Of a stretch of 14,689 bases of DNA, positions 2,392-3,823 are shown piece after piece. The stretch comes from a bacterium (GTDB taxonomy: Bacteria > SAR324 > NAC60-12). A program made the translations under genes and the position numbers. Position 1 is the stretch's first letter, and each line of letters opens with the position of its first letter. The notes beneath the pieces are model-generated. The model was not told the DNA's origin. It worked only from the letters and a program-made list of their open reading frames with translations, and did not search any database. The DNA is taken from positions 1-14,689 of the forward strand of contig CBDDTI010000304.1 in the NCBI GenBank assembly GCA_965233585.1, in the 5' to 3' direction.

Positions 2392-3327
2392 TCAGATTCT
2401 CGGTGATGTACTGACCAGATCTTGATTGTTAACCCACGAGTTGAATGATGCAGGATACCCCTTCCATTTCACTAATGATTTTGTTTTTCCCTTCTTGACG
2501 ACTTTTTCGATTCTATACACGTCTTGGTTTGTTTTTTGTAACTCGGCTTCGTAGAAGGTGCCTTGTATTTCTTCTCCGTTCAAATCTACTATCTTGTACG
2601 TTACTGGCGAAGTGTTTTGTACAGCTGATATGGTAAAGACCTCTTCAGTCCACCTAGGTGTGTATCCCTTTTCAAATGTTTTCTTTTTCTTTGTAATCCT
2701 GACTTTGTCGCCAACCGATAATCGTGCCTGATGTGTTTTTATCTCAACATGTTCTGGATACATATTTCGCCAAACCTGAATTTCATTTGTCTTCTTACTC
2801 GCTTCGACAGGTGTCATTTTGATAGACGAGTGTCTGGTGTTATTGTATTGCTCTACCAAATCGTCAAGCACATCGATGTAGACACTCGTGGAATTTGCAG
2901 AAAAATATTTCCACATTTTTTCTTTCATCGTTCTATTCCATCGCTCAACTACACTCGATTTTTCCTCGTTCTCGGTGGAATATAGCTCGATCAAACTCTT
3001 GACGTCTTTGTTATAAAATTCTTTACCCTTATCAACCCAAATCTTTGTTGGTTTTCTCTCTTTGAATATCTGTTTGAATGCAGTCGCCACCGATTTCCCC
3101 GACTTGTCTTTCAATGGAACCAACCAGCCATATTTGGAGAAAATATCAATGACGGCAAGGAGATATTTTACACCACGATTAAATCTGGAAAATGTTTGCA
3201 TGTCTACTAAATCTGCCGCCCATATTTCGTCAATGCCATTTACTTGCACGCGTCGTTTGGGAAATGTCTGAATTACAGGTTTGTGTAGCTCCTCTGCCAG
3301 CTGATCAGACCATTTTACGGCTTTTTT
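2392..3327 (-). CDS. int: Retroviral-like (rve) DDE integrase with C-terminal chromodomain; 5' part probably fused to the upstream PLA2-like ORF
   Basis: Catalytic motifs are IWAADLVDM, IWVDKGKEF and SVVERWNRT. The chromodomain reads VYRIEKVV...LVKWKGYPASFNSWV. The frame stays open upstream of the track's GTG (3249) through KKAVKWSDQLAEELHKPVIQTFPKRRV. There is no in-frame ATG before the first catalytic Asp. Confidence 0.93.
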   Translation of the reverse strand, partial: KKAVKWSDQLAEELHKPVIQTFPKRRVQVNGIDEIWAADLVDMQTFSRFNRGVKYLLAVIDIFSKYGWLVPLKDKSGKSVATAFKQIFKERKPTKIWVDKGKEFYNKDVKSLIELYSTENEEKSSVVERWNRTMKEKMWKYFSANSTSVYIDVLDDLVEQYNNTRHSSIKMTPVEASKKTNEIQVWRNMYPEHVEIKTHQARLSVGDKVRITKKKKTFEKGYTPRWTEEVFTISAVQNTSPVTYKIVDLNGEEIQGTFYEAELQKTNQDVYRIEKVVKKGKTKSLVKWKGYPASFNSWVNNQDLVSTSPRI

Positions 3328-3823
3328 TGTGTTTGACAGGCAGGCCCATCCCGAACCTCATCTTTGTACCGATGATCTTATCAACAATAGACCTATCTAA
3401 CTTCTCTCTGAGTGTGGGGTTAACAATGCCGTCCATCTCTTGAAGCATATTCTTATCACATACTTTATTTCGGGTTTCAGTATCTTTATTTTTGAGGTAA
3501 CATACATCGTGATGGTATGCCGCTTGATCGATCCTGTTTACAGGTGTACTCCAGCCCTTTGGTGTTAGATCTGGGTTCAGTCTCCTATGAAGTTTTGTAC
3601 CCGGCCCCGTGAAATTATGACCGGGTAGATGCATTTCGAGAGGTAGGTTATTGATAACCTTGTTCAATATAGAACCACCTTGTGCTGGAACTCCTTTTAC
3701 GAACTGTGTTTTTGTTGTTCCGCAAACAACGCATTTCCCTCGTTTCATATTTCGTCCGTTTTTAGAAACGGCATCTCGTAGATCTGTTGTGTTGGTCGCT
3801 TTTCTGCATTTTACGCAAAACAT
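3305..3823 (-). CDS. Zinc-ribbon plus parvovirus VP1-type phospholipase A2-like protein (PLA2X-like)
   Basis: N-terminal CVKC...CVVC zinc ribbon, Ca-loop-like HLPGHNFTGPGT, catalytic-helix-like VNRIDQAAYHHDVCY, and downstream CDKNML. Confidence 0.85.
   Translation of the reverse strand: MFCVKCRKATNTTDLRDAVSKNGRNMKRGKCVVCGTTKTQFVKGVPAQGGSILNKVINNLPLEMHLPGHNFTGPGTKLHRRLNPDLTPKGWSTPVNRIDQAAYHHDVCYLKNKDTETRNKVCDKNMLQEMDGIVNPTLREKLDRSIVDKIIGTKMRFGMGLPVKHKKSRKMV

Follow-up and report, generated by a model that had tools for sequence, protein, structure and literature searches.

A start-less integrase behind a phospholipase gene in a Polinton-type virus: probable gag-pol-like -1 recoding at an A-run

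The DNA analysed here, a stretch of 14,689 nucleotides (the window), corresponds to contig C304 of a bin (G000) of 12 Mb and 747 contigs that is rich in Polinton-like and Penelope-like pieces. It carries a Polinton-type virus in which an integrase without a start of its own follows, out of frame and across a run of A, a gene for a parvovirus-type phospholipase A2 (PLA2). We conclude that this junction is probably a site of selected, gag-pol-like -1 recoding, at which a ribosomal slip or a polymerase stutter would yield much PLA2 and little PLA2-integrase, and that the +1 offset of the window itself reflects an assembly error or a mutation.

An integrase without a start of its own

The junction comprises the following features.

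3305..3823, minus strand: zinc-ribbon (DUF5679) and parvovirus-type PLA2 open reading frame (ORF), 172 aa, with its own ATG at 3823; called from Pfam and motifs
3341..3352, minus strand: G-M-G↓L, candidate adenain-like protease site, five codons before the run
3322..3328, minus strand: A-run (T7 on the plus strand), 7 long, +1 offset; relatives have a -1 offset and read A_AAA_AAG in the PLA2 frame
3315..3320, minus strand: CCG TAA, last PLA2 codon and stop in close relatives (which end K-K-P), out of frame in the window
2392..3357, minus strand: rve integrase and chromodomain frame without a start, open up to an upstream stop at 3358-3360

Domain assignments are supported by Pfam matches to DUF5679 with its paired CxxC (E 2.6e-12), Phospholip_A2_4 (E 5.2e-10), rve (E 5.5e-9) and Chromo (E 6.3e-6). 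The PLA2 ORF contains a Ca-loop-like FTGPG and a catalytic HD motif, and across 26 homologs HD, GP and a downstream Asp are invariant or almost so; a PDB sequence search with PLA2 returned parvovirus/AAV capsids only, at E 1.6-1.8. The original prediction, that a seven-base A-run places the two genes at a +1 offset and that the integrase frame is closed upstream with no ATG before the first catalytic Asp, was borne out: the PLA2 frame ends KHKKSRKMV at a stop at 3305-3307, and the first Met of the integrase frame, Met53 (3201), lies after the first of the catalytic residues D49 (3213), D109 (3033) and E138 (2946). Runs of seven are not rare in themselves, the window having 27 A/T runs of at least six. 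The integrase is conserved from W-S-D-x-L-A-E-E-L-H-K-P onward, and, judged from sequence, chance does not explain why its homology starts at the run, or why this same linker is where relatives show a fusion or a shift. An ATG within TAAAATG at the junction was rejected as a start: the ORF that it opens, in the third frame, is two codons long, and the ATG itself derives from Lys-Trp codons.

How the integrase is initiated can be narrowed further. A separate integrase, arising through non-AUG initiation, reinitiation or splicing of the message, would render the frame of the linker irrelevant, and could draw on an in-frame CTG at 3300, on a Met before the first Asp in 2 of 15 out-of-frame loci, on gene calls in one subfamily that place the integrase start 11 codons ahead of the conserved motif, and on free variation in linker length, as fits an intron. 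Yet neither the -1 nor the +1 frame of the window offers a Met between the upstream stop and Asp49, conservation begins upstream of the CTG, and no donor/acceptor pair of matching phase is common to the window and the family, the acceptors being without a pyrimidine tract. We therefore regard separate initiation as improbable. Since there is no AUG in either out-of-frame layout, DUF5679-PLA2-rve-chromo fusions are common and no splice pair is conserved, the evidence supports a dependence of the integrase on the upstream ORF, in keeping with the earlier proposal that it is made as a fusion. Gene callers truncate such integrases, for example to a 269-aa call without the first catalytic Asp, and surveys would rate active copies as broken.

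Close relatives carry the integrase in the -1 frame

Seventeen sequencing runs match the window, and four of these, one for each of the studies P1-P4, were compared as contigs, not reads. By frame arithmetic, the integrase is in the -1 frame in all four, as read from Logan contigs, which drop rare variants. Plain fusion in siblings, named in the original prediction as the finding that would speak against programmed recoding, was seen in 0/4. Runs X1, X4 and X7 have an A-run one base longer than the window, on one contig each (depth 14.8, 299.7 and 4.3, respectively), and run X8 (depth 5.7) has two bases missing just 5' of the run; both alleles keep A_AAA_AAG in the PLA2 frame with the stop two codons later, and they differ from each other by one codon. 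The same layout is found in 3/3 near-identical database proteins that span the full junction, on five contigs, with P0351 ending KHKKKP and P0352 and P0360 ending KQKKP. Among the 15 members listed of a 167-member cluster, 12 are integrase-only calls and none is fused; in a 10-member sister cluster, P0365 alone spans the junction; a deletion places it in frame, and the protein is broken further on. No version of the window's PLA2 protein, whichever of four possible starts is assumed, occurs in the protein collection.

The integrase among these strains is under purifying selection. Among the 37 substitutions listed of 42, 22 of 27 in the integrase are synonymous and 5 non-synonymous (p 3.5e-10), all 4 in PLA2 and all 6 in the ATPase are synonymous, against a neutral expectation of 0.24, and the integrase differences private to X8 stand at 10:1 synonymous to non-synonymous. 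This synonymous excess points to strains that are diverging while selection acts on the integrase, every one of them observed out of frame, and rules out that the four runs hold alleles of one dead insertion.

The window's own allele is a different matter. Near-identical repeats in the assembly (206 alignments) differ in length at 248 of 2444 A/T runs of seven (10%) and at 106 of 493 runs of eight (21.5%), a comparison in which the repeat pairs are not independent and error and mutation are inseparable. Because 7- and 8-base runs so often differ, the loss of one base in the window needs no special explanation; its +1 allele is probably a one-base-shorter variant, produced by homopolymer error in assembly or by mutation of the copy, and as such merely an error or a dead variant. 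With no close relative carrying this allele, and with the four runs and three proteins all at -1, the recoding at A7 envisaged in the original prediction is not supported in its +1 direction, whereas gag-pol-like recoding as such is still the best reading once turned to -1. Among the options offered there, an indel fits the window's run length, and recoding probably holds for the lineage.

All three frames occur in the wider family

Several lineages keep the -1 offset, and others have a fusion or a +1 offset. One further lineage, with 74% identity, shows a -1 tail in 12 of the 17 proteins listed, or 97 of the 108 contigs, with +1 in 3 proteins (9 contigs) and fusion in 2 proteins (2 contigs), as inferred from tails compared with the fused P0004 and with 15 of 34 main-cluster members listed; a two-residue deletion allele of this lineage is still -1. 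Three more small clusters have -1 tails in 2/3, 3/3 and 2/2 of their junction-spanning members. Across PLA2-query matches above 259 bits, the counts are 60 for -1, 31 for +1, 30 (8 + 22) for fused and 21 of 120 unassigned, the frames of all database proteins being read from tails, not DNA, and many coming from few large-contig assemblies. A mode at -1 with equal +1 and fused wings is as expected if -1 is the parent state, and 21 of the 30 fused proteins are broken further on. The integrase query, which favours copies with a callable start, yielded 34 at +1, 32 at -1, 28 fused and 26 other (n = 120).

Homologs had been expected to help decide between fused and split genes, and both occur: long fused DUF5679-PLA2-rve proteins gave 133 matches, with a continuous linker in 114 of 120 listed, and split proteins are commoner (1011 matches, fragments included). 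More distant PLA2 homologs (50% clusters) with a full C-terminus continue into integrase sequence in 12 of 97 cases, the rest mostly ending shortly past GxG; most thus stand alone, and a free PLA2 product appears normal.

At the DNA level, 63 de-duplicated loci were classified as in frame (43), +1 (11, window included) or -1 (9), in a sample that is biased by its ranking against a fused query and consists mostly of decayed loci. It was drawn from the best 80 of 503 metagenome loci plus six others, after removal of 10 duplicates and 13 unparsed loci; earlier labels for these 13 were +1 (7), -1 (2), in frame with a stop (1) and unparsed (3). Fusion is consistent in one subfamily, whose run has 5 bases, and a +1 offset is frequent in another, whose run has 7. 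Loci are in frame in 18 of 22 cases for runs of at most five and in 12 of 27 for runs of at least seven. Of 27 loci, 13 have an A-run of at least seven at the junction and one has such a run at a poly-Lys site within the integrase, counts that come from related loci and carry no formal test. Additional scans added few loci: IMG/VR yielded two with both genes (L008 and L009), a motif scan six stretches, five of them unrelated, and GTDB four loci, fragmentary or broken. On the viral contig of L008, the frame is kept through two A8 runs (~2950-3000) and shifts at a dinucleotide repeat just before LAEELHK. In L003 (G000:C308), a distant broken element, two zinc-ribbon segments, PLA2 and the integrase share a single frame through the linker.

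These distributions bear on a simpler reading, in which the gene is an ordinary fused ORF whose lysine-rich linker contains a hypermutable or mis-assembled A-run, out-of-frame copies, the window's included, being dead or spread in trans by fused helper copies. The occurrence of all three frames among relatives, the lower in-frame share at longer runs, the 133 long fused proteins and the instability of homopolymers in the window's assembly would all follow from it. It is harder to reconcile with the window's lineage, which is fused in neither the four runs nor the 15 listed cluster members and whose two alleles are both -1 while the integrase is under purifying selection, or with the second lineage, -1 on 97/108 contigs, and long runs are avoided inside the integrase, not at the junction. 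We consider this reading, the main alternative, rather unlikely.

An even less probable reading, and in our judgement the least probable of all, is that +1 recoding truly operates at the A7 of the window. In one metagenome subfamily, +1 copies with a run of seven do recur despite the bias (9 of 19 7-run loci, with more among the removed loci), and bidirectional stutter could keep +1 copies viable; however, the allele is found in 0/4 runs and in no database protein of the lineage, and run-length differences are frequent in the window's assembly. Recoding at -1, which we prefer, has to accommodate counter-evidence of its own, namely the plainly fused lineages (43 of 63 loci in frame, in the sample biased to the fused query), the near-even integrase-query counts, L008 being in frame across its A-runs and the restoration of frame by deletion in P0365, a close relative.

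The -1 overlap and the level of the proposed slippage

In the -1 layout that we propose as the working one for the lineage, the PLA2 ORF ends A_AAA_AAG CCG TAA in overlap with the integrase frame, as read in the four runs and three proteins. The main product would be free PLA2 with a short basic tail, and a minority of messages or ribosomes would slip by one base on the A-run and continue into the integrase, which would thereby form the C-terminal part of a zinc-ribbon-PLA2-integrase-chromodomain polyprotein. Such a slip could take place at either of two levels, in the ribosome (-1) or in the RNA polymerase (an added A). An X_XXY_YYZ heptamer in the upstream frame before the stop is present in relatives, not in the window's allele. 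Considering nested folds only, no 3' stimulatory RNA structure stood out above shuffles (z +1.37, +0.87, -0.30 and +1.09), and five -1 loci likewise gave no such signal (mean z -0.19; nested folds only, without pseudoknots). This counts against -1 recoding, as does the heptamer itself: in the motif lists drawn on from PMC5009743, A_AAA_AAG is a shifty site of E. coli and A_AAA_AAC heads the mammalian list. For these two reasons we do not file the junction as a canonical -1 ribosomal frameshift, although by slipping it would work like gag-pol. The lack of a 3' structure, together with the existence of +1-dominated and fused lineages, slightly favours polymerase stutter or unstimulated sliding. 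None of the runs listed as matching is an RNA run.

The element belongs to a recently active Polinton family

The element with the junction is a Polinton/adintovirus-type virus, combining an rve integrase with chromodomain, a type B polymerase, a double jelly-roll (DJR) capsid protein, an A32 ATPase, a protease and terminal inverted repeats ending ACTACT, a terminal motif described in PMC8097293. One element end only lies inside the window, whose further features are as follows.

1..2066, minus strand: type B DNA polymerase (PolB) gene, 5' half; 99.4% identity to contig C492, where a 1343-aa ORF has DANNLY, KLMNNSVFG and DTDS motifs
2230..2421, no strand assigned: terminal inverted repeat, inner part; inverted copy on C492; all four runs show loose ends and increased depth here
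3858..4631, plus strand: A32-like packaging ATPase (Pox_A32, E 8e-10)
9660..10943, plus strand: DJR major capsid protein (MCP; DJR-like_dom, E 1.8e-54)
11379..11499, no strand assigned: outer terminal repeat ending ACTACT, the element end; identical to the end of the C492 copy, with different flanks

C492 holds a 99.4% identical copy of window 1-2220, with the 1343-aa PolB-motif ORF and a protease ORF; its flank is different, and 11 of 12 codon differences are synonymous, from which we conclude that the element belongs to a recently active family. The polymerase was called on this copy by motifs alone, which we take to be regions I-III; its ORF had no PolB match in Pfam, PHROGs or PDB, nor a Pfam match to the OTU domain that the Starrett definition of Alpha adintoviruses places on PolB. 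The adenain-like protease lies outside the window, as a 139-aa ORF on C492 that matches the Peptidase_C5 domain of contig C389 (E 7e-14) and has no Pfam match of its own. We infer a marine animal as host, because the matching runs are marine or plankton samples and the homologs with a named source belong to Nymphon striatum and Mya arenaria. A second copy of the PLA2-integrase junction is absent from the bin, where the best other integrases are 55% identical.

Possible packaging and release of the integrase

To our knowledge, no Polinton particle has been characterised so far. If the polyprotein is made as proposed, the integrase would enter the particle attached to PLA2 and would be released by the viral protease at G-M-G↓L. 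The short basic tail left after GMG in free PLA2 (window 3329-3352) is reminiscent of adenovirus pVIc, the protease cofactor peptide. Packaging has indirect support. Motifs of the form GxG/GG plus a hydrophobic residue number 2 in PLA2, 7 in ORF 5461, 2 in ORF 6510 and 3 in ORF 8213, and 0 in the integrase, ATPase, penton, MCP, ORF 7339 and the PolB part. Repeated in ORFs 5461-6039, 6510-7157 and 8213-8680, they are candidate protease sites of core proteins. An AlphaFold model of the natural fusion P0004 was uninformative (pLDDT 60, pTM 0.32, integrase core unresolved).

PLA2 is not the only partner of such integrases. A 469-aa ORF of the bin (L002:967-2376, G000:C389) joins Peptidase_C5 to an rve integrase and chromodomain; its integrase has the start motif of the window's integrase, immediately preceded by LTGG, and by its sequence the ORF represents a second carrier-integrase fusion; P0348 is a zinc-ribbon-integrase fusion. 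More broadly, and only tentatively, a clade of marine-animal Polintons might package its integrase on a particle protein, with A-run stutter in both directions setting the dose and the protease releasing the enzyme. The carrier would then vary by lineage (PLA2, zinc ribbon or protease), and lineages of all three kinds, fused, -1 and +1, could be viable, a scheme that we hold possible but doubtful and that, if true, would amount to a gag-pol equivalent evolved in a dsDNA virus. The question bears on how Polintons deliver and limit a mutagenic integrase, and a recoded PLA2-integrase polyprotein, if true, would predict a virion component and offer a signal that is short and can be tested.

Comparison with known systems

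In retroviral and LTR-element gag-pol -1 frameshifting, a structural protein comes first, the integrase lies in the -1 frame behind an X_XXY_YYZ-shaped site before the stop, and a protease releases the products, a layout to which the lineage studied here is alike. Unlike these systems, the element is a dsDNA virus, has no 3' stem-loop or pseudoknot found (nested folds only), uses a bacterial dnaX-type heptamer (frameshift heptamer motifs as given in PMC5009743) and has sister lineages that are fused or +1. Polymerase slippage on A-runs, for which PMC5009743 includes Ebola GP, potyvirus PIPO at GAAAAAA and Thermus dnaX, is similar in that a short A-run suffices without RNA structure, an extra-A message opens the second frame and run length can drift; those cases, however, involve RNA-virus or bacterial polymerases.

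The closest gene complements are those of Polintons/Mavericks and of Alpha adintoviruses with PLA2X (Starrett et al. 2021, PMC8502044), which, as far as these are described there, share PolB, the rve integrase with chromodomain, the A32 ATPase, the DJR capsid, a parvovirus-type PLA2 gene, the ACTACT end and a protease, here on the sister copy. In the descriptions given by PMC8502044 and, for the Sf Maverick CAP and INT, by PMC5803895, PLA2X/CAP and integrase are separate genes, whereas the integrase here is without a start and is fused or frameshift-linked to a PLA2 with an N-terminal zinc ribbon. Slippery -1 sites have been predicted by KnotInFrame in adintovirus Penton and Hexon-Adenain ORFs (PMC11071296), that is, in the same virus group and direction, but in other genes and as predictions alone; the portions of that paper covered leave the PLA2-integrase junction unmentioned, and its supplements may hold such annotations. 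The mavirus particle contains its own integrase, a lipase-like protein cut at GK↓G and a protease that cuts GG↓X and GX↓G (PMC6048507); there, integrase is a gene of its own, unlike in the element studied here. Within the portions covered of PMC8502044, PMC3671162, PMC11071296, PMC11131425, PMC5803895, PMC11296320, 10.64898/2026.06.19.733378, PMC8097293, PMC6048507 and PMC5009743, neither a PLA2-integrase fusion nor recoding at the junction is described, and the accessible part of the supplement of PMC8502044 makes no mention of frameshift, slippage or fusion; further supplements, Repbase and subscription papers may hold such annotations.

Other features of the window and bin

Compared with run X4, the central 9.1 kb of the element (window 2230-11378) appears to lie in inverted orientation; X4 has a loose end at 2230 with a match to the outer terminal repeat, and on C492 the inner and outer terminal repeats are joined; the inverted segment may be a rearranged copy, an isomer or a mis-assembly. 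Within the terminal repeat, about 11 bases are missing at window 2292-2309 compared with three or four runs. A 12-nt tandem repeat at 7133-7333 creates an Asp-rich open frame without an ATG, which overlaps the end of ORF 6510-7157 in a different frame. The bin also contains dozens of near-identical elements of a separate multi-copy family (for example on C112, C328 and C670), with PolB-like genes and integrases 35% identical. Adjoining the element end, window 11501-12685 holds what we take, by its motifs and with no Pfam match, to be a Penelope-like RT/GIY-YIG ORF; it starts mid-domain and has many relatives in the bin.
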